Positions 29,857 through 64,000 of a stretch of DNA of 64,000 nt are shown here, one piece after another (positions within the stretch are counted from its first letter, which is position 1; each line of letters begins with the position of its first letter). The notes below the pieces were generated by a model, which was not told where the DNA came from, ran no database searches, and was given only the letters and a program-made list of their open reading frames with translations. The stretch lies in assembly GCF_013122565.1 (NCBI RefSeq), contig NZ_CP053258.1; one strand, written 5' to 3'. Source of the DNA: Escherichia coli. Lineage in GTDB: Bacteria; Pseudomonadota; Gammaproteobacteria; Enterobacterales; Enterobacteriaceae. Made by a program: the position numbers and the translations under genes.

Positions 29857-30121
29857 CGACCAAAAACCTCTTTGCGTCACATTTTTACAACAATTATTGC
29901 AGAGAAGATTAATGCTATTGGAATGAAGAGAGTAACGAATGGCTAAACCGAATGACGAAAAATTCTGGAAAACAGCACGCAATTTCGTGAAGTGATTATT
30001 TTCGTCCCTAAGGAAACCTCATAGGATGCCTGCGGGTGCCTGAGACTTTCTGTTTTCAGGCTAACCGGGAATCAGAAAGACGAAGGCCCCGACCGATATT
30101 TCTATCAACCGAGGCCAACGA

Positions 30122-30329
<208 letters not shown>

Positions 30330-30574: not shown

Positions 30575-30745
30575 ATAACCTCCATGGTTTATCGAATCTT
30601 ATGTTCGATTTGAACGTTATACGCTGGTTTATTTTGATACCGTTGATGAGATCAAAGATCGGGTGAATTGATTAAAAATAAGGCAGATGGACGTATGGGC
30701 AAGGATTATGGTTTTATTTGTCATACAAATAAATATAATAGGCGC

Positions 30746-30809
30746 TTCCGATGTAGACCCGTATTCTTCGCCTGTACCACGGGTCGGTTTTAGTACAGGC
30801 GTTTTCTTT
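30746..30809 (+). ncRNA. rydC: RydC small RNA (Hfq-dependent pseudoknot sRNA)
   Basis: cttccgatgtagacccgtattcttcgcctgtaccacgggtcggttttagtacaggcgttttctt matches RydC as I recall it; TATAAT box about 8 nt upstream; ends in a hairpin (gcctgtac / gtacaggc) plus U-run. Confidence 0.65.
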
Positions 30810-51200: not shown

Positions 51201-54200
51201 CATAGTTTCCCGCGCCTTGCAAATTAATGGTGGCGTCAGATTCATTCACTGTGATGCCGTAATCACTGGCCCACAGCCCGTAGTTGACACCGAAATACCA
51301 TTTCAGGGGGGATTCAGACATCCCGCCTGCGTATGCAGGTGTCGTTACAGAGATCAGATTAATAACCCCACCCGACGCATTCGTAACCTGAGAATTCTGG
51401 CCACGAGCACGCATTGTCCCCCCCCTGGAGAATTCCTCACCGCTAGGTTTGACATTAATAATTCCACTATTAGTGATATGTGCACCATTGTTAGCCGTCA
51501 TTAAATCCTGGCTATCCATTGTGTTAATCACACCTTTGTTTTCAACGCTGGACTGACTGCCAATAGCAGAAATAAGCGCACGTTCAAAGAAGAAAAAGTC
51601 GGTTTCCCTGGCTTTACTGGATATATCCGTTACAGCGTTTTCATCAAATATAACTTTTCCACCGTCCGCCACCGAGACCAACGTAAAGGCACCCAATTCC
51701 TGACGGGTATCCATTGTCGAATGACCACTAATGTTAACGGTATTGTCACCAATAACCGATACGCCATCTATAACATGTGCGGCGCTATCACCACTAATAT
51801 TAATACCGCCATCAATATTAACGGTATTCTTCTCGCCAGAAACAATTATGCCACTCACTAAATTTTCCTGGTGTAGCAGCTCCCCTTGTACGGTGATATC
51901 AACATGGCCACTAATATCTACAGTGTTATTTTTACCACTAATCGTTCCACCTGTTAATGCTGTGATTTGTGCATCAGGGTTATCGCCGAGGATGGAATTA
52001 ACATTGATGCTTCCGTCAACGCTAATATGGCTGTCATTACCCGTCAGACTGAAACCTGTAGCACCCGGCGCATTGCCCTCGCTGTCTGGTTGCTGGAATA
52101 CGTTAATATCGCCGCTTAATTGAACCTGTTCACGGTCACCCGCAATGGATACCCCAGTTCCGTACCGTGAAACATCAATTTCGCCCACGTTACCGAAAAC
52201 TTCATCATCACCATCAATCAGAATCCCCACAGAACCGGAATCCGTGACAACAATTTTGCCTTTATTACTTAACTGCGAGTTATTACCGGCAATATCAATA
52301 CCCGTTGCCCCTCCGCTGACGTAGAGGTCACCTTCCTGGCTAATTGTTGCATTGTGACCGGCAACTTTTGTCCCTACTGCATTCGCACCGTCAACCGTCA
52401 TATCCCCGGCGATATTCATCTCATTGCCATCGCCAGTGATGGTTATACCTGTGGCATTTTCACCCAAAATATTAAGATCATAGGTTGCCAGGGTTATACT
52501 ATTGTTGTCGCCGATAATCTCCATGCCAGTCGTATCGTCTTTAACCAGCATTGAGCCAGCAAGAGAAATACTGCTGCTGTCCCCGGTGATTTTTACACCA
52601 GTACCGCTATTTGTTGTGGTGATGTCTCCCACATTGACAAAGGTAGTATTATCACCATTGATTAACACGCCGTAGGGGTTTCCGTCACTGTCCGCCTGAC
52701 CTACATTGATATCACCAATGTTCATAAAGGTTGTTTGATCGCCATCCAGCAATACACCGATGGAAGTATCATCCACCACAGTAACATTACCCTTATTACT
52801 GACGAGAGTACCTTTACCCTCGGCGTCAATACCGTGTGCGCCACCGCTGACGTATAAATCACCCTGTTGCCTTACAATGGCATCTTCGCCGATAATTTTT
52901 GATCCCGTTGAATTTGCACCATCGACGGTCATGTCGCCTTTGATTTCAATGCGGGCATCATCCCCTGTAATCACACTCCCCGTGCCACCATTCGTGATTT
53001 CGACATCACCAACGGTGTTCAACGTAGTACGATCGCCATTGACAATAACGGCCGTACCACCATCGACATCTGTCTCACCATTATTAGTAATGGTGATATC
53101 GTCACCGGTAAGAATACCTACCACCGAACCTTCACCAATCGCGGTAGTTTGACCGTCGTTGTTCAGGGTGATGTCGTTACCGTCAACGTTTATCACAACG
53201 CCGCCATTCAGCGCGATGTTGCCGCCATGGTCGGTAATAGTGGCATCGTTAATATGGAAATGTTCGCCAGTTGTACCGTCTGCGGTGGTGAGTGACTCTA
53301 TGATTATTTCGATTTTTCCCGCTTCGTCATAGCGCCAGGTGGAGGTTCCGCTCGGATTGACGCCATTGAACGAAGCAGTGTTAGCCGCCTCGTCGACTAA
53401 CCAATCCTTTACGATTGTGGTAGTGCCGCCAGGTCCGGTAAGCGTATAGCTGCCATCGTCATTTTTGGTGTAGGTAAAGGTGGTATCACGTAATTTTAGG
53501 GTCTTCGCGTCCTGATCCCAGGTGACATCGTTTTTATAGACCACTGGATCGTGTTTAACTGGCGTGTCATCGCCACCGTCATCCGGGGTGTCATCGCCGC
53601 CATCATCTGGCGGGACGGGGGTGTCGCCGCCATCATCCGGCGGGACTGGTGTGTCGCCGCCATCATCCGGCGGGACTGGTGTATCACCGCCATCATCCGG
53701 CGGGACTGGTGTGTCGCCGCCATCATCCGGCGGGACTGGTGTGTCACCGCCATCATCCGGCGGGACAGGTGTATCACTGCCATCGTCTGGCGGGACTGGC
53801 GTGTCGCCGCCATCATCCGGCGGGATGGGTGTATCACCGCCATCATCCGGCGGGACGGGTGTATCACCGCCATCATCCGGCGGGACTGGCGTGTCGCCGC
53901 CATCATCCGGCGGGACGGGTGTATCACCACCATCATCCGGCGGGACTGGCGTGTCGCCGCCATCATCCGGCACCGGAGACGAATCGTCATGATGATTATT
54001 ATTATCGTGGAGTGCATATACTGCGACACCTGTGACTGCCGCTGCCAGCCCCACTGCAGCCCAGGGTAATAACTCATTATCTTCAACTGATTTACACTCT
54101 GCCGGCAGCTTTTCTAGCTGTTCTTTACTTAGTGATTTAATATTGGCCGGGCAGCTAATCTTGCTGGATTTACGAGATTCATCCGATGTTTCCGCTATCG

Positions 54201-54273
54201 ACGTATCTGCCGCCCATGTCTGGCTGCTTAACGCCATTGCAACACAGACACTGAGCAATTTTTTCCTTTGCAT
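48238..54273 (-). CDS. ydbA: YdbA, giant type Va autotransporter (AIDA-like), intact 2011-aa reading frame
   Basis: Single 6036-nt ORF: signal peptide, Pro/Asp/Gly decapeptide repeat stalk, very long Gly/Thr/Asn-rich beta-helical passenger with pervasive internal repeats, and a C-terminal beta-barrel translocator ending MLNFKKTF. Confidence 0.9.
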   Translation of the reverse strand: MQRKKLLSVCVAMALSSQTWAADTSIAETSDESRKSSKISCPANIKSLSKEQLEKLPAECKSVEDNELLPWAAVGLAAAVTGVAVYALHDNNNHHDDSSPVPDDGGDTPVPPDDGGDTPVPPDDGGDTPVPPDDGGDTPVPPDDGGDTPIPPDDGGDTPVPPDDGSDTPVPPDDGGDTPVPPDDGGDTPVPPDDGGDTPVPPDDGGDTPVPPDDGGDTPVPPDDGGDDTPDDGGDDTPVKHDPVVYKNDVTWDQDAKTLKLRDTTFTYTKNDDGSYTLTGPGGTTTIVKDWLVDEAANTASFNGVNPSGTSTWRYDEAGKIEIIIESLTTADGTTGEHFHINDATITDHGGNIALNGGVVINVDGNDITLNNDGQTTAIGEGSVVGILTGDDITITNNGETDVDGGTAVIVNGDRTTLNTVGDVEITNGGTGSVITGDDARIEIKGDMTVDGANSTGSKIIGEDAIVRQQGDLYVSGGAHGIDAEGKGTLVSNKGNVTVVDDTSIGVLLDGDQTTFMNIGDINVGQADSDGNPYGVLINGDNTTFVNVGDITTTNSGTGVKITGDSSSISLAGSMLVKDDTTGMEIIGDNNSITLATYDLNILGENATGITITGDGNEMNIAGDMTVDGANAVGTKVAGHNATISQEGDLYVSGGATGIDIAGNNSQLSNKGKIVVTDSGSVGILIDGDDEVFGNVGEIDVSRYGTGVSIAGDREQVQLSGDINVFQQPDSEGNAPGATGFSLTGNDSHISVDGSINVNSILGDNPDAQITALTGGTISGKNNTVDISGHVDITVQGELLHQENLVSGIIVSGEKNTVNIDGGINISGDSAAHVIDGVSVIGDNTVNISGHSTMDTRQELGAFTLVSVADGGKVIFDENAVTDISSKARETDFFFFERALISAIGSQSSVENKGVINTMDSQDLMTANNGAHITNSGIINVKPSGEEFSRGGTMRARGQNSQVTNASGGVINLISVTTPAYAGGMSESPLKWYFGVNYGLWASDYGITVNESDATINLQGAGNYAAAASKGTATNAGEINVDGFVPELDEDGNIISKSYWQPPHPYLMSGGVVVGSTDIGNGDASGLNTGTINVNNEGFGMLAMSGGTVVNQGTINLTADEGVTKQQDNQLFAMGAIQGGLAINDQDGVININTDIGQAFYKDSTGTILNYGKITLFGNPMDESDSHMGVTPDDKDVLSELSGSGESISKTTTTDGFVVVNNLANYGDETLNGNVDANGWLYNQPDASLTINGELSVTQGLENSGTLDVDSINSKTTIYNRETGSMTTDLLTLNGAVSFFNEGEFSGSITGNSYQQNVVNTGEMTVTEDGQSLINGSFLFFNEAGATLTNSGNAVTGGENAIIHVTRTGDSVSQVNRGTITATNGYSAIKTESTGSNSKGKWIWNTETGVINGINPAAPLVDLGRGYNFANAGVINVQGDNAVGISGGTTSYVVQLVNSGTINVGTEQGQQDGTNGEGLIGIKGNGRETTINNTQTGVINVYADNSWAFGGQTKAIINNGEINLLCDTGCDIYAPGTTGTQNDHNGTVDITVPDASTTPSQGDVPTPPADSNAPQLLSNYTIGTNSDGSSGTLSANNLVIGDNVSVNAGFSAGTADTTVVVNDVFKGENISGVDNIVSSTVVWNAKGSTDANGNVDVTMSKNAYTDVATDASVNDVAKALDAGYTNNELYTSLNVGTTAELNSALKQVSGSLATTVFREARVLSNRFSMLADAAPKVGNGLAFNVVAKGDPRAELGNNTEYDMLALRKTIDLSESQSMSLEYGIARLDGDGAQKAGDNGVTGGYSQFFGLKHQMSFDNGMNWNNALRYDVHNLDSSRSIAFSNTNKTADTDVKQQYLEFRSEGAKTFEPSEGLKVTPYAGVKLRHTLEGGYQERNAGDFNLNMNSGSETAVDSIVGLKLDYAGKDGWSASATLEGGPNLSYAKSQRTASLAGAGSQHFNVDDGQKGGGINSLASVGVKYSSKESSLNLDAYNWKEDGISDKGVMLNFKKTF
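53565..53975 (-). repeat. About 13 to 14 near-identical 30-bp tandem repeats inside ydbA, encoding PVPPDDGGDT units
   Basis: Directly visible periodicity: (ggtgtcgccgccatcatccggcgggactgg)n with only a few substitutions; in-frame units (PVPPDDGGDT, PIPPDDGGDT, PVPPDDGSDT) at about residues 100 to 240. Confidence 0.9.
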
Positions 54274-54674
54274 ATGAAATTCCTCATAAATAGATGCTTA
54301 CGCAGCCCAGATAAACTGCACAGGGTTAAATAGTTAAAAATATTCGAAATCTGGATATTGTTTTTAACAGAATAAATATATTGATTTAGTGAATGTATTT
54401 ATTCATTAAGTCAATATATCTTTTCTTTAATTTATATTTTTAACGCATTTATTTCAACTTAAAATATGGCGTAATTGAGATTAAATCCGATAACACCGAT
54501 GAATTAAATAATGCAATTAATTCATGAAATAAATAAATTATCATGTGAATGAAGCATTCATCATCGGCATCTATATGAAATTAAATGAAAAATAATTCTC
54601 TATAGCATTGCAGTTAATATTGAATATTTCAGGAGGTACAACCAGGCAGATTTTTCTCGACGAATACCGACTTA

Positions 54675-55001
54675 TTATTTTTGCAACCACATTCCGTTTA
54701 TCCCGCGAATGTATTCTCCCGGCTTAGCTTTTGCTACCAGTTTCTGCCCCGCCAATTTTTCCACTTCCGCAACCGGCAGATTATTTTTCATGGCGAGTTG
54801 TTGATAGCTCTTATTACGCGATTCATTAATCCTTTTGACTAACATCTGTGTTTCGGTATCCGCCTTTAATGCAACCAGATAACCATTATACGTTTCGCCA
54901 ACACGCCCCTGAGTTCGAGCGTCATCCAGCGTCAGAGCCATCGCACTGGTGCTAAATAAGGCATTAATGACAAAACACAGTATTAAACTTCTCTTCATCA
55001 T
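54675..55001 (-). CDS. ydbL: Periplasmic protein YdbL (DUF1318)
   Basis: ORF 54675..55079 trimmed to the MMKRSLILCFVINALFSTSAMA start (108 aa) with a signal peptide; third gene of ydbH-ynbE-ydbL. Confidence 0.8.
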   Translation of the reverse strand: MMKRSLILCFVINALFSTSAMALTLDDARTQGRVGETYNGYLVALKADTETQMLVKRINESRNKSYQQLAMKNNLPVAEVEKLAGQKLVAKAKPGEYIRGINGMWLQK

Positions 55002-55005
55002 CGCC

Positions 55006-55191
55006 TCAGAAAAGATCGCTACGAGTTTCAAGCAGCTCTTCGACATCTTTGTCTGCCTTGATGATGATCTCATGCTCAATTTTAACGTTCATATTGATAG
55101 TGATCGGTTCCTTAGGTGCAGCGACTTCAATGCGAGGCGTACAGCCAACCAGCATAAAAGATGACGTCAACGCAGCCAGTAAAATTTTCAT
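55006..55191 (-). CDS. ynbE: Small lipoprotein YnbE (61 aa)
   Basis: MKILLAALTSSFMLVGCTPRIEV... with a lipobox (LVGC); its start overlaps the ydbH stop by 4 nt. Confidence 0.8.
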   Translation of the reverse strand: MKILLAALTSSFMLVGCTPRIEVAAPKEPITINMNVKIEHEIIIKADKDVEELLETRSDLF

Positions 55192-57827
55192 TGTTTTTCC
55201 TCACACTCTTTTCCTTGCGGACAGTCATTTCCCGGCAGACGTGCGTTCTGCTCCAACCATGCCTGGAGATTATCGCCAAAGCGTAAACTGCGCCACAGCG
55301 TAAAAATATTCTCTTCATGATGGTAATTAAGGTTTACCGTACCGCTTTTACCATCAACGCGACTGGTACCTGTAATGTTGGCCTGCATGGTTAATAAACC
55401 GAGATTATCTAAATTAATATTTGTCGATGAACGGCTAATTTCCATATAGCGCAACCAGTTAATTGCTGAACCCGCAGTCATATTGTCTTTCACCACCGCA
55501 TCTGCGGTGTCTTTATCCAGCCGCAAGGTCATTGGCCCGCTATTTGCCAGCCAACCATCTTTCACAATCCATTTTTCGTTGTTTAGCCATAACGGCAATG
55601 CACCACTAAATGCCCCGGACATGGCGAATTGTTTCGGATTGATGGCGCTAACCAGTTCGCTGGATGAGAGATTATTCAGCCGCAACAGCGCCGGGTCATG
55701 TTGCGGCATACGTAATTGTTTCATCAGCACGTTACCGCCTAACACATCGACGCTAACATCAGTCAACAGCAATGGTTCTTCTTCTGTCCACGGATAGCGC
55801 CCTTGCAAATCAGCCGTAATATTTTTCGCTGTCACCAGATTAATCACTTCGGCAATTCGCAACGTAACGGGGCCGCGAGTCCCCAGATGCCAGGCTCCAT
55901 CGGCAAAACGGAAAGGCAGGACAAAATCGACACCGTTAACCTGATTATCTGGCATCCAGGCACTACCGCCTTTCAACACGCCGTGCCCTCCCGCGCGGAA
56001 TCCTTGTTCAGGCGCAGCAGAAAATGCAACCTGAGCATACAGTTCACCATCGCGTAAGTTCATCTTCCAGTCGGGTGGCACCAGCGGCTGGAATACAGTC
56101 AGTGATTGTTTAGGCCACCAGGCGTTACCGCGCAGACGAATACCGTCCCAGCGACCATTTACCCGAACCGGGCCAATCTCACCAGCATGTAAATCGCCTT
56201 TAAAGAGGAAATAGGTAGGATCGCGCCCATCGACACTAAATTTTAAGGTTGATGGCGGTAACAGACTGCCGCCAGTGAACAGCGTTTGCCCGGCGTCCAG
56301 TGACAGCGCGCCGCTGAAGGAGGGATGCTGTGCGTCACGTACCCAGACGACGGGCTTGTCGAGAATTAGTCGCGGCTTTTCTACCGTCATCGTACCGTAT
56401 TGTAACTGGTCGAAACCGGTGGAGAGATCGGTCAGCGTAATCGTGCTGTCATGCCACTCACCTTTTCCTGCGACATCCCAGGTGGCATTCATCGGTGTAA
56501 AACTGCCTTTTCCCCAGTAGCGCCACTGCCAGCGGCCAGCGTCAGGGAGAAAATCATTCGCCAGCCCATCCATATGCAGCACGAAATCGCCCAGTTCATT
56601 TTCATGCGCCTGCAAGATGGCCTGCAAACGTCCGTCAACACCACGTTGGGTGACTTTTACACCCGCTAAAGGCCAGCGGATTTCATCGATGTCCAGCGAA
56701 TCGATGACTCTTCCCTTCGAACGTAATAACGCGCCTGGCTCAAAGGCTAACGTTGGGTCAGTCAGACTTCCACTTAGCTGCGCGGGTAAGCGGGCATATA
56801 AAATGAGGTCCGCCTGTTTCGCTTCACCGGTCAGCTGCAGAGGCAGCTGACTGTTATCCATGCTTAATTTTCCTGGGCCAAAATTAAGCACCGCGTTGCC
56901 CTTACCCGCTTGCCCCTGGGTCAGCACACTCAGTCGTCCGCTGACCACTGCGTTCTCGATACCTGCCTGCCAGTTGTCGACTTTGACACCCAGTCGTCCA
57001 CTCAAAGGAAAACCTACATACGGCCAGCTCCAGCGACCATCGCTTACCGTCAATTGTTGACGAGTAATTTGCCACGGCAAATCGAGCAACGGATCGCCGT
57101 TATCCCGTGCCAGCACAATCAATTGCCCGCTATTTTCCTGCCAGTCCAGCTCGGCATCCACCAGTGACGGTTCCTGCGGCAAGTTTAACGTCGCAGTAGC
57201 ATGCCCACTTACAGGAAGTCCATCCGGCACTAGCGGCATAGTAAATTCCCCCACCAGTTTTACCGGCGGCTGATTTTCAAACGCGGCGACATCCAGTTCG
57301 CTGACTGTAAGTTGTTGCCCTTTCAACTGGCCTTGAAATTTAACTTTTTCGCCCTGATAACGCAGTTGCTGGATATCAGAGGTTAATGCGAGAGAGAGTT
57401 TTCCCTGCCATTCCTGCCAAGGAGAAAAAATCAGTTTATCGATATTGATCCAGGTGTTAGGCAGCATGGACTGCCACTGCGCGAGGGTTTTTGGAGCGGC
57501 TGGCGATTGCTCCGTCTGCGGCAATTTCGCCAGACAAGCAGAATCAAGTTCTACCGTGCCGACGTTCAATAACCAGCGGCTGGGATGTGAAAGGCTGGCG
57601 TTGGTGATATGCGCAAGCTGACAATCTCCCACCAGATAACGGAGATCGGGAATGATTAAACCTTTACGCGTAATGCGTGGGCTTTCATCTAATGCAATAC
57701 GTGTCCCGAGCGGTAGCCAGATGCCCGCCAGCGTGGGAACCCACAGCCCGAGCGTCATCAGCAGCGTCAACGGCACAAGAATAATCAGTAATAACAGCGC
57801 GAGAACGGCTTTATATTTACCCAGCAT
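55188..57827 (-). CDS. ydbH: AsmA-like large envelope protein YdbH
   Basis: 879-aa ORF with an N-terminal membrane anchor (MLGKYKAVLALLLLIILVPLTLLMTLGLWV) followed by a long predicted periplasmic domain. Confidence 0.85.
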   Translation of the reverse strand: MLGKYKAVLALLLLIILVPLTLLMTLGLWVPTLAGIWLPLGTRIALDESPRITRKGLIIPDLRYLVGDCQLAHITNASLSHPSRWLLNVGTVELDSACLAKLPQTEQSPAAPKTLAQWQSMLPNTWINIDKLIFSPWQEWQGKLSLALTSDIQQLRYQGEKVKFQGQLKGQQLTVSELDVAAFENQPPVKLVGEFTMPLVPDGLPVSGHATATLNLPQEPSLVDAELDWQENSGQLIVLARDNGDPLLDLPWQITRQQLTVSDGRWSWPYVGFPLSGRLGVKVDNWQAGIENAVVSGRLSVLTQGQAGKGNAVLNFGPGKLSMDNSQLPLQLTGEAKQADLILYARLPAQLSGSLTDPTLAFEPGALLRSKGRVIDSLDIDEIRWPLAGVKVTQRGVDGRLQAILQAHENELGDFVLHMDGLANDFLPDAGRWQWRYWGKGSFTPMNATWDVAGKGEWHDSTITLTDLSTGFDQLQYGTMTVEKPRLILDKPVVWVRDAQHPSFSGALSLDAGQTLFTGGSLLPPSTLKFSVDGRDPTYFLFKGDLHAGEIGPVRVNGRWDGIRLRGNAWWPKQSLTVFQPLVPPDWKMNLRDGELYAQVAFSAAPEQGFRAGGHGVLKGGSAWMPDNQVNGVDFVLPFRFADGAWHLGTRGPVTLRIAEVINLVTAKNITADLQGRYPWTEEEPLLLTDVSVDVLGGNVLMKQLRMPQHDPALLRLNNLSSSELVSAINPKQFAMSGAFSGALPLWLNNEKWIVKDGWLANSGPMTLRLDKDTADAVVKDNMTAGSAINWLRYMEISRSSTNINLDNLGLLTMQANITGTSRVDGKSGTVNLNYHHEENIFTLWRSLRFGDNLQAWLEQNARLPGNDCPQGKECEEKQ

Positions 57828-58034
57828 GGGTAGTTAATATCCTGATTTAGCGAAAAATTAAGCATTCAATACGGGTATTGTGGCATGTTTAACCGTTCAG
57901 TTGAAGGTTGCGCCTACACTAAGCATAGTTGTTGATGAATTTTTCAATATCACCATGACTTTCAATTATATTTGAAATTTTGTAAAATATTTTTAGTAGC
58001 TTAAATGTGATTCAACATCACTGGAGAAAGTCTT

Positions 58035-59024
58035 ATGAAACTCGCCGTTTATAGCACAAAACAGTACGACAAGAAGTACCTGCAACAGGTGAACGAGTCC
58101 TTTGGCTTTGAGCTGGAATTTTTTGACTTTCTGCTGACGGAAAAAACCGCTAAAACTGCCAATGGCTGCGAAGCGGTATGTATTTTCGTAAACGATGACG
58201 GCAGCCGCCCGGTGCTGGAAGAGCTGAAAAAGCACGGCGTTAAATATATCGCCCTGCGCTGTGCCGGTTTCAATAACGTCGACCTTGACGCGGCAAAAGA
58301 ACTGGGGCTGAAAGTAGTCCGTGTTCCAGCCTATGATCCAGAAGCCGTTGCTGAACACGCCATCGGTATGATGATGACGCTGAACCGCCGTATTCACCGC
58401 GCGTATCAGCGTACCCGTGACGCTAACTTCTCTCTGGAAGGTCTGACCGGCTTTACTATGTATGGCAAAACGGCAGGCGTTATCGGTACCGGTAAAATCG
58501 GTGTGGCGATGCTGCGCATTCTGAAAGGTTTTGGTATGCGTCTGCTGGCGTTCGATCCGTATCCAAGTGCGGCGGCGCTGGAACTCGGTGTGGAGTATGT
58601 CGATCTGCCAACCCTGTTCTCTGAATCAGACGTTATCTCTCTGCACTGCCCACTGACACCGGAAAACTACCATCTGTTGAACGAAGCCGCCTTCGATCAG
58701 ATGAAAAATGGTGTGATGATCGTCAATACCAGTCGCGGTGCATTGATTGATTCTCAGGCGGCAATTGAAGCGCTGAAAAATCAGAAAATTGGTTCGTTGG
58801 GTATGGACGTGTATGAGAACGAACGCGATCTGTTCTTTGAAGATAAATCCAACGACGTAATTCAGGATGACGTATTCCGTCGCCTGTCTGCCTGCCACAA
58901 CGTGCTGTTTACCGGGCACCAGGCATTCCTGACAGCAGAAGCTCTGACCAGTATTTCTCAGACTACGCTGCAAAACTTAAGCAATCTGGAAAAAGGCGAA
59001 ACCTGCCCGAACGAACTGGTTTAA
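58035..59024 (+). CDS. ldhA: Fermentative D-lactate dehydrogenase (D-2-hydroxyacid dehydrogenase family)
   Basis: 329-aa ORF with the NAD-binding GXGXXG motif (GVIGTGKIGVA); divergent from ydbH. Confidence 0.9.
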   Translation: MKLAVYSTKQYDKKYLQQVNESFGFELEFFDFLLTEKTAKTANGCEAVCIFVNDDGSRPVLEELKKHGVKYIALRCAGFNNVDLDAAKELGLKVVRVPAYDPEAVAEHAIGMMMTLNRRIHRAYQRTRDANFSLEGLTGFTMYGKTAGVIGTGKIGVAMLRILKGFGMRLLAFDPYPSAAALELGVEYVDLPTLFSESDVISLHCPLTPENYHLLNEAAFDQMKNGVMIVNTSRGALIDSQAAIEALKNQKIGSLGMDVYENERDLFFEDKSNDVIQDDVFRRLSACHNVLFTGHQAFLTAEALTSISQTTLQNLSNLEKGETCPNELV

Positions 59025-59134
59025 TCTTGCCGCTCCCCTGCATTCCAGGGGAGCTTATTCAGATAATCCCCAAAGACCTTTCATCCTCTATTCTTAAAAT
59101 AGCCCTGAGTCAGAAACTGTAATTGAGAACCACA

Positions 59135-59557
59135 ATGAAGAAAGTAGCCGCGCTTGTTGCGCTCAGCCTGCTGATGGCGGGATGTGTAAGTAATGACAAA
59201 ATTGCTGTAACGCCAGAACAGTTACAGCATCATCGTTTTGTGCTGGAAAGCGTAAACGGTAAGCCCGTGACCAGCGATAAAAATCCGCCAGAAATCAGCT
59301 TTGGTGAAAAAATGATGATTTCCGGCAGCATGTGTAACCGCTTTAGCGGTGAAGGCAAACTGTCTAATGGTGAACTGACCGCCAAAGGGCTGGCCATGAC
59401 CCGTATGATGTGCGCTAACCCGCAGCTTAATGAACTCGATAACACCATTAGCGAAATGCTGAAAGAAGGTGCACAAGTGGATCTGACCGCGAACCAGTTA
59501 ACGCTGGCAACCGCGAAACAGACATTAACTTATAAGCTAGCGGATTTAATGAATTAA
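59135..59557 (+). CDS. hslJ: Heat-shock lipoprotein HslJ
   Basis: Internal start MKKVAALVALSLLMAGCVSN within ORF 59123..59557 (140 aa) with a lipobox (LMAGC). Confidence 0.85.
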   Translation: MKKVAALVALSLLMAGCVSNDKIAVTPEQLQHHRFVLESVNGKPVTSDKNPPEISFGEKMMISGSMCNRFSGEGKLSNGELTAKGLAMTRMMCANPQLNELDNTISEMLKEGAQVDLTANQLTLATAKQTLTYKLADLMN

Positions 59558-59820
59558 TAGCTGCCACAGCTTCCGGCGGCAAGTGACTGTTCGCTACAGC
59601 GTTTGCCGTTGGGTAATGCACACATCCCAATCGCCGTACCATCCAGTTGACGGGCAACAGAAAGCGAACCGCCGATCATTGCACAATTTGCTTCTCCACT
59701 ACTGGACATCGACGCTTTTAAACCTGGCGCTACGTGCGCCGCAGTCGCCTGCTGAACAGGTTCACTACTACACGCCGACAACAATAAAGCGGCACCCCCT
59801 ACCCAAAACGCTGCTCGCAT
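59554..59820 (-). CDS. ydbJ: Small lipoprotein YdbJ (DUF333)
   Basis: 88-aa ORF with a lipobox (LLLSACSSE); its stop overlaps the convergent hslJ stop. Confidence 0.75.
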   Translation of the reverse strand: MRAAFWVGGAALLLSACSSEPVQQATAAHVAPGLKASMSSSGEANCAMIGGSLSVARQLDGTAIGMCALPNGKRCSEQSLAAGSCGSY

Positions 59821-60093
59821 CTTTTCTTCCTCTGATCTTCAAGCCAAACGACACCGCCATAAATAATAGGCAGCACAGAGGGCGACGTCGAGAGCTGTCC
59901 TGCGCGTTGCCCCGCATTTTTACTTTTTTATGGCTATTTTTTTGCCCTCTGTTTGATCAAAACATTCATTACGCTGATGTGGGGGACACAAAAGCGAAAA
60001 TGCAGAAGAAAGCCATTTGCTAAAATTGAAAGATTACTACTGGGCGCGCAGCAATTTCGTGCGCCCCTCATTTGCGCAATGTAAGGGTGTCAT

Positions 60094-63000
60094 ATGATTA
60101 CTATTGACGGTAATGGCGCGGTTGCTTCGGTGGCGTTTCGCACCAGTGAAGTTATCGCCATCTACCCTATTACCCCCAGTTCCACGATGGCAGAACAGGC
60201 AGATGCCTGGGCCGGAAACGGCTTAAAGAACGTTTGGGGAGACACACCACGCGTGGTTGAAATGCAGTCGGAAGCGGGTGCTATCGCTACCGTGCATGGC
60301 GCTTTGCAGACGGGTGCCCTTTCAACATCGTTTACGTCATCGCAGGGTTTGCTGCTGATGATACCGACGCTGTACAAACTGGCAGGCGAACTCACACCGT
60401 TTGTCCTGCATGTAGCGGCACGTACCGTTGCCACACATGCACTCTCTATTTTTGGCGATCATTCCGACGTTATGGCGGTGCGCCAGACGGGTTGCGCGAT
60501 GTTGTGTGCAGCAAACGTCCAGGAAGCGCAAGACTTTGCTCTCATTTCGCAAATCGCGACGCTGAAAAGCCGCGTGCCATTTATTCATTTCTTTGATGGT
60601 TTCCGCACGTCCCACGAAATCAATAAAATTGTCCCGCTGGCCGATGACACGATTCTTGATCTCATGCCGCAGGCCGAAATTGATGCTCATCGCGCCCGGG
60701 CGCTCAACCCGGAACATCCGGTGATCCGCGGTACGTCCGCCAATCCTGACACTTATTTCCAGTCACGCGAAGCCACCAACCCATGGTACAACGCAGTCTA
60801 TGACCATGTTGAACAGGCGATGAATGATTTCGCTGCCGCGACAGGTCGTCAGTATCAGCCGTTTGAGTATTACGGGCATCCGCAAGCGGAACGGGTGATA
60901 ATCCTGATGGGCTCTGCCATTGGCACCTGTGAAGAAGTGGTTGATGAATTGCTAACCCGTGGCGAAAAAGTCGGCGTGCTGAAAGTTCGCCTGTACCGCC
61001 CCTTCTCCGCCAAACACTTGCTACAAGCTCTGCCGGGATCCGTACGCAGCGTGGCGGTACTGGACAGAACCAAAGAACCCGGTGCCCAGGCAGAACCGCT
61101 CTATCTGGATGTAATGACCGCACTGGCAGAAGCCTTTAATAATGGCGAGCGCGAAACTCTGCCCCGTGTCATTGGTGGGCGCTATGGTCTTTCATCCAAA
61201 GAATTTGGCCCGGACTGTGTACTGGCGGTATTTGCCGAGCTCAACGAGGCTAAACCGAAAGCACGCTTTACGGTTGGTATTTACGATGATGTAACCAATC
61301 TGTCACTACCGTTGCCGGAAAACACCCTGCCAAACTCGGCGAAACTTGAAGCCTTGTTTTATGGCCTTGGTAGTGATGGCAGCGTTTCCGCGACCAAAAA
61401 CAATATCAAGATTATCGGTAATTCCACGCCGTGGTACGCACAGGGCTATTTTGTTTACGACTCCAAAAAGGCGGGCGGCCTGACAGTTTCTCACCTTCGC
61501 GTGAGCGAACAGCCGATTCGTTCCGCTTATCTCATTTCCCAGGCTGATTTTGTTGGCTGCCACCAGTTGCAGTTTATCGATAAATATCAGATGGCTGAGC
61601 GTTTAAAACCTGGCGGCATTTTCCTGCTCAACACGCCATACAGCGCAGATGAAGTGTGGTCGCGCTTGCCGCAAGAAGTTCAGGCCGTGCTAAACCAGAA
61701 AAAAGCGCGCTTCTATGTGATTAACGCAGCGAAAATCGCCCGCGAATGTGGGCTGGCGGCCCGTATTAATACCGTCATGCAGATGGCTTTTTTCCATCTG
61801 ACGCAAATTCTGCCTGGCGATAGCGCCCTCGCAGAATTGCAGGGTGCGATTGCCAAAAGTTACAGTAGCAAAGGCCAGGATCTGGTGGAGCGCAACTGGC
61901 AGGCTCTGGCGCTGGCGCGTGAATCCGTAGAAGAAGTTCCGTTGCAGCCGGTTAATCCGCACAGCGCCAGTCGACCGCCTGTGGTTTCCGATGCCGCTCC
62001 TGATTTCGTGAAAACCGTAACCGCTGCGATGCTCGCCGGGCTTGGTGATGCCCTCCCCGTTTCGGCGCTGCCGCCAGACGGCACCTGGCCGATGGGCACC
62101 ACGCGCTGGGAAAAACGCAATATCGCCGAAGAGATCCCCATCTGGAAAGAGGAACTCTGTACCCAATGTAACCACTGCGTCGCTGCTTGCCCACACTCCG
62201 CTATTCGCGCAAAAGTGGTACCACCTGAAGCGATGGAAAACGCCCCTGCCAGCCTGCATTCGCTGGATGTGAAATCGCGTGATATGCGCGGGCAGAAATA
62301 TGTCTTGCAGGTGGCACCGGAAGATTGCACCGGTTGTAACCTGTGCGTCGAAGTTTGCCCGGCGAAAGACCGTCAGAATCCAGAGATTAAAGCCATCAAT
62401 ATGATGTCTCGCCTGGAACATGTCGAAGAAGAGAAAATCAATTACGATTTCTTCCTCAACCTGCCAGAAATCGACCGTAGCAAACTGGAACGTATTGATA
62501 TTCGTACATCGCAGCTGATTACACCGCTGTTTGAATATTCCGGTGCTTGTTCCGGTTGTGGCGAGACGCCGTATATTAAATTGCTGACTCAGCTCTATGG
62601 CGACCGGATGTTGATCGCTAACGCCACCGGCTGTTCTTCAATTTATGGCGGTAACCTGCCCTCCACACCGTATACTACCGATGCCAATGGTCGTGGACCG
62701 GCATGGGCGAACTCGCTGTTTGAAGATAACGCCGAATTTGGCCTGGGTTTCCGCCTGACGGTCGATCAACACCGTGTCCGGGTGCTGCGTCTGCTGGATC
62801 AATTTGCCGATAAAATCCCTGCGGAATTACTGACGGCGTTGAAATCAGACGCTACGCCAGAGGTTCGTCGAGAACAGGTCGCAGCTTTACGCCAGCAACT
62901 CAACGATGTTGCCGAAGCACATGAACTGCTGCGTGACGCAGATGCTCTGGTGGAAAAATCAATCTGGCTGATTGGTGGCGACGGCTGGGCTTACGATATC

Positions 63001-63618
63001 GGCTTTGGCGGTCTGGATCATGTATTGAGTTTGACGGAAAACGTCAACATTCTGGTGCTGGATACGCAATGCTATTCCAACACCGGTGGTCAGGCGTCGA
63101 AAGCGACACCGCTGGGTGCAGTAACTAAGTTCGGCGAGCACGGCAAACGTAAAGCGCGTAAAGATCTTGGCGTCAGTATGATGATGTACGGTCATGTTTA
63201 TGTGGCGCAGATTTCTCTCGGCGCGCAGCTGAACCAGACGGTGAAAGCGATTCAGGAAGCGGAAGCGTATCCGGGACCATCGCTTGTCATTGCTTATAGC
63301 CCGTGTGAAGAGCATGGTTACGATCTGGCTCTCAGCCACGACCAGATGCGCCAACTCACTGCTACCGGCTTCTGGCCGCTATATCGCTTCGATCCTCGTC
63401 GTGCCGATGAAGGCAAACTGCCGCTGGCGCTGGATTCACGCCCGCCGTCAGAAGCACTGGAAGAAACGTTACTTCATGAGCAGCGTTTCCGTCGTCTGAA
63501 TTCGCAGCAGCCAGAAGTGGCAGAACAGTTATGGAAAGATGCTGCAGCTGATTTGCAAAAACGCTATGACTTCCTGGCACAAATGGCCGGAAAAGCGGAA
63601 AAAAGCAACACCGATTAA
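60094..63618 (+). CDS. pfo: Pyruvate:flavodoxin/ferredoxin oxidoreductase (YdbK/Pfo, NifJ-like)
   Basis: 1174-aa ORF with two 4Fe-4S ferredoxin motifs (CTQCNHCVAACP and CTGCNLCVEVCP) and a thiamine-diphosphate-binding C-terminal domain (GGDGWAYDIGFGGLDH). Confidence 0.92.
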   Translation: MITIDGNGAVASVAFRTSEVIAIYPITPSSTMAEQADAWAGNGLKNVWGDTPRVVEMQSEAGAIATVHGALQTGALSTSFTSSQGLLLMIPTLYKLAGELTPFVLHVAARTVATHALSIFGDHSDVMAVRQTGCAMLCAANVQEAQDFALISQIATLKSRVPFIHFFDGFRTSHEINKIVPLADDTILDLMPQAEIDAHRARALNPEHPVIRGTSANPDTYFQSREATNPWYNAVYDHVEQAMNDFAAATGRQYQPFEYYGHPQAERVIILMGSAIGTCEEVVDELLTRGEKVGVLKVRLYRPFSAKHLLQALPGSVRSVAVLDRTKEPGAQAEPLYLDVMTALAEAFNNGERETLPRVIGGRYGLSSKEFGPDCVLAVFAELNEAKPKARFTVGIYDDVTNLSLPLPENTLPNSAKLEALFYGLGSDGSVSATKNNIKIIGNSTPWYAQGYFVYDSKKAGGLTVSHLRVSEQPIRSAYLISQADFVGCHQLQFIDKYQMAERLKPGGIFLLNTPYSADEVWSRLPQEVQAVLNQKKARFYVINAAKIARECGLAARINTVMQMAFFHLTQILPGDSALAELQGAIAKSYSSKGQDLVERNWQALALARESVEEVPLQPVNPHSASRPPVVSDAAPDFVKTVTAAMLAGLGDALPVSALPPDGTWPMGTTRWEKRNIAEEIPIWKEELCTQCNHCVAACPHSAIRAKVVPPEAMENAPASLHSLDVKSRDMRGQKYVLQVAPEDCTGCNLCVEVCPAKDRQNPEIKAINMMSRLEHVEEEKINYDFFLNLPEIDRSKLERIDIRTSQLITPLFEYSGACSGCGETPYIKLLTQLYGDRMLIANATGCSSIYGGNLPSTPYTTDANGRGPAWANSLFEDNAEFGLGFRLTVDQHRVRVLRLLDQFADKIPAELLTALKSDATPEVRREQVAALRQQLNDVAEAHELLRDADALVEKSIWLIGGDGWAYDIGFGGLDHVLSLTENVNILVLDTQCYSNTGGQASKATPLGAVTKFGEHGKRKARKDLGVSMMMYGHVYVAQISLGAQLNQTVKAIQEAEAYPGPSLVIAYSPCEEHGYDLALSHDQMRQLTATGFWPLYRFDPRRADEGKLPLALDSRPPSEALEETLLHEQRFRRLNSQQPEVAEQLWKDAAADLQKRYDFLAQMAGKAEKSNTD

Positions 63619-63646
63619 ATGCACTGGATAAGGATTATCCAATTCT

Positions 63647-63684
63647 AAAAAAAAGCCCGGACGACTGTTCGGGCTTGTCTTTTT
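63647..63684. terminator. Bidirectional Rho-independent terminator shared by pfo and micC
   Basis: GC-rich hairpin (gcccg ... cgggc, 63654..63676) flanked by A8 upstream and gtcttttt downstream, so a U-run follows on either strand. Confidence 0.7.
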
Positions 63685-63756
63685 ATATGTTAGAAAATCA
63701 GTGGCAATGCAATGGCCCAACAGAAAATAAAATCTGTGACAATAAAGGCATATAAC
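63648..63756 (-). ncRNA. micC: MicC small RNA (Hfq-dependent repressor of ompC/ompD)
   Basis: Reverse complement reads gttatatgcctttattgtcacagattttattttctgttgggccattgcattgccactgatttt...aagcccgaacagtcgtccgggctttttttt, matching MicC as I recall it; divergent from ompN. Confidence 0.7.
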
Positions 63757-63983
63757 CCGCGCAGAATAACGTATAGCAAATTAAAAGTATAATTTTTATT
63801 TTGTATGTATTATCTTCGATACATTCACCAGACTTATTATCATTTCAGAAGAATTATTTGATTAAGGTTTTACTTAAGGCGTAACAAATGATATTTATCG
63901 GCTAACTGAACTTCTCCTTTAGGATGTTTTCACTCCCCGAAATGGGGATAAAAGGCAAATAAAATAACTAAAGGATTTATTCA

Positions 63984-64000
63984 ATGAAAAGCAAAGTACT
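63984..64000 (+). CDS. ompN: Outer membrane porin OmpN, first 5 to 6 codons only (window ends)
   Basis: ATGAAAAGCAAAGTACT encodes MKSKV, the typical porin signal-peptide start, preceded by an aaggat Shine-Dalgarno; the call rests mostly on synteny. Confidence 0.45.

Follow-up and report, generated by a model that had tools for sequence, protein, structure and literature searches.

Results and Discussion

Near the end of the window, by which we mean the whole 64-kb stretch of DNA that was analyzed, a gene for the small RNA MicC lies on the minus strand between pfo and ompN. We put at about 95% the probability of the complete reading, namely that this region is the E. coli micC orthologue, that its terminator hairpin is common to pfo, and that the divergent promoters of micC and ompN lie in the spacer separating them. 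The locus is the well-known micC in its usual place between pfo (ydbK) and ompN, and is already published. The model score, the seed, the terminator and the location are all those of the MicC family. The features that define the locus are as follows.

63647..63756, minus strand: MicC sRNA, with its 5' G at 63756 and its 3' end within the U8 at 63654-63647
63734..63756, minus strand: MicC seed (5' target-pairing region), GUUAUAUGCCUUUAUUGUCACAG, an exact match, unpaired in the RNAalifold consensus
60094..63618, plus strand: pfo (ydbK/nifJ) coding sequence, 1174 aa, pyruvate:ferredoxin (flavodoxin) oxidoreductase, with the stop codon TAA at 63616-63618
63757..63983, both strands: micC-ompN intergenic spacer, 227 bp, with one base (63850) different from K-12
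63984..64000, plus strand: start of ompN, its first 17 bases (MKSKVL...), with the ATG at 63984-63986; the end of the window cuts the gene

Identity and Extent of MicC

An earlier note on this DNA had placed a MicC of about 109 nt on the minus strand and had named the Rfam model as the way to check it. As the scan shows, the model (RF00121) matches 63639..63759 (-) with 121 bits, against a gathering score of 90, and the match extends over the full model, positions 1–123 of 123, with both ends present. The E-value is 9.1e-20, or 1e-18 when referred to the entire 64-kb window. The scan of 60000..64000 covered all 4,227 families, and MicC is the sole strong match there. The Leu_leader and Thr_leader matches at 63622-63704 were rejected, as their scores, 24 and 22 bits, fall short of the gathering scores (50 and 55) and reflect a terminator hairpin that resembles attenuator terminators. 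At gathering thresholds the whole 64-kb window gives three Rfam matches only; the two besides MicC are the sok antitoxin RNA at 30034..30185 (+), with 110 bits, and the RydC sRNA at 30745..30808 (+), with 92.5 bits.

The transcript opens at 63756 with GUUAUAUG, and the span from there to the A8 run (63647-63654) is 103–110 nt, in agreement with the proposed length. The 5' end is placed by a fusion primer of Dam et al. 2017 (PMC5745476), which stops at 63757, position -1. Alignment with the annotated K-12 micC (b4427) is 1:1, with one substitution (C-to-U) and one fewer terminal U. In K-12 this ncRNA occupies 1437121..1437231 between ompN and ydbK, the arrangement seen in the window, and the micC locus is present in 5,412 of 5,426 complete E. 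coli genomes. The pfo product matches NCBIfam TIGR02176 with 1630 bits (cut-off 911); the locus is named nifJ in near-identical RefSeq E. coli loci and corresponds to K-12 ydbK (b1378), at the same position. The 17 ompN coding bases in the window are identical to K-12 ompN (b1377).

The RefSeq PGAP records carry no micC feature under the matching locus ("none"). The name that they give to the porin beside micC varies, either "ompC: porin OmpC" or "ompN: porin OmpN", records H1, H2 and H5 differing in this from H3 and H4.

The mechanical list of open reading frames does contain a 63-aa frame with a TTG start at 63529..63720 (-), which raises the alternative that this is a real gene and the RNA its mRNA. 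However, the frame begins inside MicC, crosses the intrinsic terminator and the U8 tract, and then runs antisense to the 3' end of pfo. The RefSeq annotation of the matching records shows no CDS at its position, and the covariance-model match fully accounts for the region. We give a protein-coding gene here next to no chance, and retain MicC as the product of the strand. The RNA so identified is described in the literature as 109 nt long, and it represses OmpC through pairing with the ompC 5' UTR (PMC5745476); an Hfq-binding MicC of ~109 nt that lowers OmpC is known from both K-12 and UTI89. The micC case confirms that a known sRNA, its seed and its neighborhood can be recognized from raw sequence.

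Pairing of the Seed with the ompC Leader

The seed, GTTATATGCCTTTATTGTCACAG, is located at 63756..63734 (-). Complementarity of this 5' end to the ompC leader had been proposed in the earlier note, and it is borne out: the 5' end GUUAUAUGCCUUUAUUGUCACA is complementary to the K-12 ompC leader, and at most 1 in 1000 shuffles does as well. RNAduplex finds MicC nt 1–16 perfectly complementary to positions -30..-15 of the K-12 leader (AAUAAAGGCAUAUAAC), and, beyond an 11-nt loop, nt 17–21 paired with -46..-42. With the leader (-47..-14) the seed gives a duplex energy of -26.5 kcal/mol. Dinucleotide-shuffled seeds give -14.8 ± 2.5 kcal/mol against the same leader, with one in 1000 reaching -26.5, and none of 1000 shuffled ompC leaders reaches that value. 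The K-12 leader was used for these calculations, since ompC itself lies outside the window. Of 5,370 E. coli genomes, 5,359 carry the 100-nt leader at 99% identity or more; nearly invariant across the species, it is a safe proxy.

On the basis of this pairing, the 5' 16–22 nt of MicC would bind the ompC leader just upstream of the ribosome-binding site (-30..-15, plus -46..-42). Hfq-assisted pairing of MicC blocks OmpC translation, as the work of Chen et al. 2004 is summarized in PMC5745476. As a separate candidate, ompN was considered as a target and rejected: the seed and the ompN leader form a duplex of -14.6 kcal/mol, a value attained by 219 of 1000 shuffles.

Structure of MicC and the C65U Allele

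An RNAalifold consensus was built from ten loci in five genera: the window, K-12, three other Escherichia lineages, two Salmonella subspecies, a Citrobacter MAG, UBA5654 and Pseudocitrobacter. All ten were gathered by exact search for the 22-nt seed. In the consensus the 5' 34 nt are unpaired, and they are followed by a central stem-loop that is also present in the Rfam consensus structure.

63688..63722, minus strand: MicC central stem-loop, nt 35–41 paired with nt 63–69

The central stem shows compensatory U-A to C-G changes in Salmonella, and the terminator stem is invariant in the 10 loci from 5 genera. The ~109-nt RNA would accordingly fold in three parts, a single-stranded 5' end, the central stem-loop, and a Rho-independent terminator hairpin with its U8.

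A three-way alignment of the window with K-12 over 401 aligned bases reveals four differing events.

Difference 1: C65U in MicC, 63692 (A on the plus strand)
Difference 2: terminal T-run of 8, vs 9 in K-12
Difference 3: substitution in the spacer, 63850
Difference 4: substitution between the terminator and the pfo stop

The C65U substitution changes the G39-C65 pair to G39-U65, so the central stem is kept. A search of 5,426 complete E. coli genomes for the exact 61-mer with U65 found no copy, the best matches having one mismatch, and the variant therefore appears private to the lineage of the window. This absence, together with the nine Us of K-12 against the eight seen here, could be taken to mean that MicC of the window is functionally altered. 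However, the new pair is a G-U wobble, of a kind that this stem accommodates along with compensatory changes; seed and terminator stem match those of K-12; and eight is the most frequent number of Us among the aligned loci. A functional change is thus very improbable, and we predict from the fold that the C65U allele is neutral and preserves the structure. It counts as a minor new item, given its absence from those 5,426 genomes.

At 52000-64000, the window is about 98% identical at most (97.9% over the best full-length match) to complete RefSeq E. coli genomes, of which only 114 cover at least 80% of these 12 kb. These values suggest an Escherichia lineage that is poorly represented or divergent. 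A variable autotransporter (ydbA/BigA-like) region lies upstream.

Conservation and Synteny beyond E. coli

Wherever a locus reaches far enough to show it, pfo is convergent with micC. ompN is divergent from micC in Escherichia, UBA5654, Pseudocitrobacter and the Citrobacter MAG. No ompN homologue occurs within about 4 kb upstream of micC in Salmonella enterica subsp. arizonae and diarizonae (L006, L011), and the divergent arrangement of sRNA and porin is therefore not universal.

Two of the loci, in UBA5654 (Enterobacteriaceae; L008 3515-3618, -) and in Pseudocitrobacter vendiensis (L010 456-556, +), contain the exact 22-nt seed, the terminator and the pfo/ompN synteny. Their RNA has a shorter, divergent middle part, and their scores do not reach the Rfam gathering threshold. 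These loci are likely MicC variants that Rfam annotation has missed. In the Citrobacter MAG (L007; 6-129 -, 131-250 -), a match to the Hfq-binding RNA STnc490 (Rfam, 145 bits) lies immediately next to the MicC 3' end, in the place that pfo has in Escherichia; the contig stops there, and the context is incomplete.

A Hairpin Common to micC and pfo

pfo on the plus strand converges on micC on the minus strand, and the elements between the two are listed below.

63653..63676, both strands: shared GC-rich terminator hairpin, from the terminator scan and folds
63647..63654, minus strand: U8 tract ending MicC; on the plus strand A8, the upstream A-tract of the pfo-sense terminator
63677..63686, plus strand: pfo-sense T-rich tail GTCTTTTTAT, an interrupted U-tract, from the terminator scan
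63625..63641: small AT-rich 7-bp hairpin (GGAUAAG-GAU-UAUCC region), between the pfo stop and the shared terminator

The earlier note had held that MicC ends in the same hairpin that terminates pfo. The first part of this claim stands, as a single hairpin at 63653..63676 is common to micC and pfo, flanked by A8/U8 on one side and GUCUUUUUAU on the other, and it is the sole terminator-like element between the pfo stop and the body of MicC. For the second part, termination of pfo is predicted from sequence and is likely to be partial. The small hairpin at 63625..63641 appears in both the MFE and the centroid fold of the plus strand, is conserved in the Escherichia loci, and falls within the part matched by the 3' end of the Rfam MicC model.

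Read in the pfo sense, the shared hairpin is AAGCCCGGAC-GACU-GUUCGGGCUU, with ten continuous pairs, one of them G-U, and a core of -13.3 kcal/mol. In the MicC sense it is GCCCGAAC-AGUC-GUCCGGGC followed by U8; the G-U of the plus strand becomes an A.C mismatch, and the core is -9.3 kcal/mol. The geometry is thus asymmetric, the stem favoring pfo and the U-tract favoring MicC. The plus-strand hairpin is the only site that the terminator scan calls in 63400..64000. The minus-strand terminator is not called by this simple scan because the A.C mismatch breaks its stem rule. On the MicC side the T-run is conserved, T7–T9, in all aligned loci. The tract on the pfo side is T-rich in Escherichia and degenerate in Salmonella, Citrobacter, UBA5654 and Pseudocitrobacter.

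That the hairpin terminates MicC is near certain. A bidirectional intrinsic terminator at 63653..63676 is plausible, because A8/U8 and a T-rich tract flank a single hairpin on opposite sides. As a near-palindrome, it would also stop pfo transcripts, probably incompletely; it most likely does so because it is the only terminator-like element after the convergent pfo. The text of the supplement of an E. coli Term-seq paper (PMC7815308), so far as it is available, has no entries for the 3' ends of micC or ydbK, and a literature search for a bidirectional micC terminator and for ydbK Term-seq returned no 3'-end data for the hairpin.

A different balance between the two directions is possible, in which the hairpin serves in practice as the terminator of MicC only and most pfo transcripts read through it, antisense over micC, as a pfo-ompN operon. 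A passage of PMC6176095 that cites Fabrega et al. 2012 describes ydbK and ompN as "coexpressed in an operon", activated via SoxS. If this is correct, some pfo transcription passes the hairpin, runs antisense over micC and enters ompN, and the co-expression reported in that passage suggests that the hairpin is leaky in the pfo direction. The interrupted pfo-sense U-tract (UUGUCUUUUUAU), which is unconserved outside Escherichia, points the same way. Against predominant read-through, the pfo-sense hairpin is the stronger of the two, with its 10 continuous pairs and a core of -13.3 vs -9.3 kcal/mol, and is the one site in 63400..64000 that the scan calls. RT-PCR co-amplification, if that was the method of Fabrega et al. 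in 2012, would detect even rare read-through. Although such extensive read-through deserves consideration, we favor a shared hairpin that ends MicC and, likely, part of the pfo transcripts.

A further proposal is that the hairpin couples micC and pfo in cis, with read-through RNA that is antisense to MicC and with effects on pfo of any micC deletion that removes the hairpin. We consider this unlikely. Were it true, pfo read-through into ompN induced by SoxS or RpoS would carry the full anti-MicC sequence and could collide with micC transcription or sponge MicC, linking oxidative stress to relief of OmpC repression and to expression of OmpN. Deletions of micC that remove the hairpin also take away the only terminator-like element of pfo, a loss that could contribute to OmpC-independent, methyl-viologen-sensitive phenotypes of delta-micC ExPEC. 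A 2026 preprint describes delta-micC ExPEC as methyl viologen sensitive, with OmpC-independent effects; it reports that pMicC complements in trans for growth on single carbon sources and includes pMicC in the methyl-viologen assay as well. The preprint mentions ydbK, pfo and the terminator nowhere. Since the hairpin belongs to both micC and pfo, knockouts of micC that are meant to be clean should leave the terminator in place, or else their effects on the pfo and ompN transcripts should be checked. This possible coupling of micC deletions to pfo is perhaps a minor new item, all important points about the locus being already published.

Divergent Promoters in the micC-ompN Spacer

The earlier note had expected both divergent promoters within a micC-ompN spacer of roughly 230 bp. 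The spacer measures 227 bp, and the published fusion fragments map exactly there. The primers of Dam et al. 2017 (PMC5745476) lie at 63757..63774 (SD2/SD4), 63921..63940 (SD1) and 63963..63983 (SD3). In that work a 184-nt fragment equal to 63757..63940 drove micC-lacZ, and a 227-nt fragment equal to 63757..63983 drove ompN-lacZ. The activity in both orientations was published for MC4100, which differs from the window by 1 base (PMC5745476). Both fusions were induced by beta-lactams and by sigma-E depletion, and the increase in an hns mutant was about 11-fold for micC-lacZ and about 6-fold for ompN-lacZ (PMC5745476).

The candidate promoter elements within the spacer are the following.

63763..63768, minus strand: candidate micC -10, TATTCT (-12..-7), followed by the GC-rich discriminator GCGCGG
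63786..63791, minus strand: candidate micC -35, TATACT (-35..-30), overlapping the block AAAATTATAC (63787-63796)
63816..63843, plus strand: weak candidate ompN promoter, TCGATA-16-TATCAT, from the promoter scan, with a poorly conserved -10
63788-63793, plus strand: alternative ompN -10 candidate, TATAAT, perfectly conserved, overlapping the micC -35 block

The micC hexamers are weak, and a simple sigma-70 scan does not call them; it finds one promoter-like site vs 1.6 expected by chance. Since the scan is no better than chance and misses the micC promoter, the hexamers are assigned by position and conservation. The candidate micC -10 reads TAT(T/G)(C/A)T in the 10 loci. The block AAAATTATAC is invariant at 9 of its 10 bases, with column 1 nearly so, across Escherichia, Salmonella, Citrobacter, UBA5654 and Pseudocitrobacter. 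Transcription of micC would start at 63756 (-) from a weak sigma-70-type promoter, which we infer to be TATACT-17-TATTCT. For the start of ompN transcription, Dam et al. 2017 (PMC5745476) note that predictions are the sole source.

Strong conservation across Escherichia, UBA5654 and Citrobacter marks two stretches of the spacer. One, GTATAATTTTTATTTTGTATG at 63787-63807, has the candidate micC -35 on the strand of micC and, on that of ompN, a perfect TATAAT. The other, at 63851-63899, is GAATTATTTGATTAAGGTTTTACTTAAGGCGTAACAAATGATATTTATC, which we take to resemble OmpR-type boxes (TTTAC...TAAC). Closer to ompN, 36–50 nt upstream of its ATG, a weakly supported hairpin, UCCCC-GAAAU-GGGGA, is found at 63934-63948. 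Pairing is present in 94% of cells across 7 loci, and two pairs are changed on both sides, with 34 of 500 shuffles matching the score.

Proposed Porin Co-Regulation

That micC is encoded opposite ompN has led to a proposal of dual regulation by analogy with micF-ompC (PMC5745476), and the earlier note had likewise regarded the arrangement as consistent with reciprocal porin control. As a hypothesis of the literature, this is upheld in part. The micC-lacZ and ompN-lacZ fusions are co-induced, but the OmpN protein was seen to be induced only without sigma-E or H-NS, and its induction by antibiotics in the wild type was not shown (PMC5745476). In the mechanism that we envisage, the spacer would hold the promoters of micC and of a normally silent porin gene, ompN, that are induced together. 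Beta-lactams or loss of H-NS or sigma-E would co-induce micC and ompN, so that OmpC would be turned down when OmpN is turned on. Such a switch would parallel that of micF, ompC and ompF.

Comparison with Known Systems

The closest known system is micC of K-12 (b4427; RF00121), which shares with the window its position, 5' end, seed, central stem-loop and terminator, and for which the predicted pairing with the ompC leader is the same. Salmonella MicC has the identical 22-nt seed, the same terminator stem and a convergent pfo, but it differs in that the middle of the RNA has diverged and the stem shows compensatory changes. It is reported to have a second target as well, ompD, bound within the coding sequence, a finding of Pfeiffer et al. 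in 2009.

The shared hairpin resembles the bidirectional intrinsic terminators of E. coli in being one GC-rich, near-palindromic hairpin between convergent units, with an A-tract and a T-tract as its flanks. It departs from the symmetric case in that the MicC sense combines a perfect U8 with the weaker stem, whereas the pfo sense combines the stronger stem with an interrupted U-tract.

At the level of gene arrangement, micC-ompN invites comparison with micF-ompC. A paralogous origin of the two pairs was considered and set aside, as no alignment signal rises above shuffles, a level of resemblance at which sequence cannot decide. Local alignment of micC with micF gives z = 0.09, with 161 of 300 shuffles scoring as high, and alignment of the two spacers gives z = 0.94, with 61 of 300 shuffles as high. 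With no detectable homology, the two systems are therefore analogous and not demonstrably paralogous. In both, an sRNA gene is divergent from a porin gene and represses a different porin by pairing near the ribosome-binding site, and in both the sRNA and the adjoining porin are co-regulated and silenced by H-NS (PMC5745476). The two RNAs differ in where they bind, as MicC pairs upstream of the ribosome-binding site, whereas MicF covers the ribosome-binding site and the start codon (PMC5745476).
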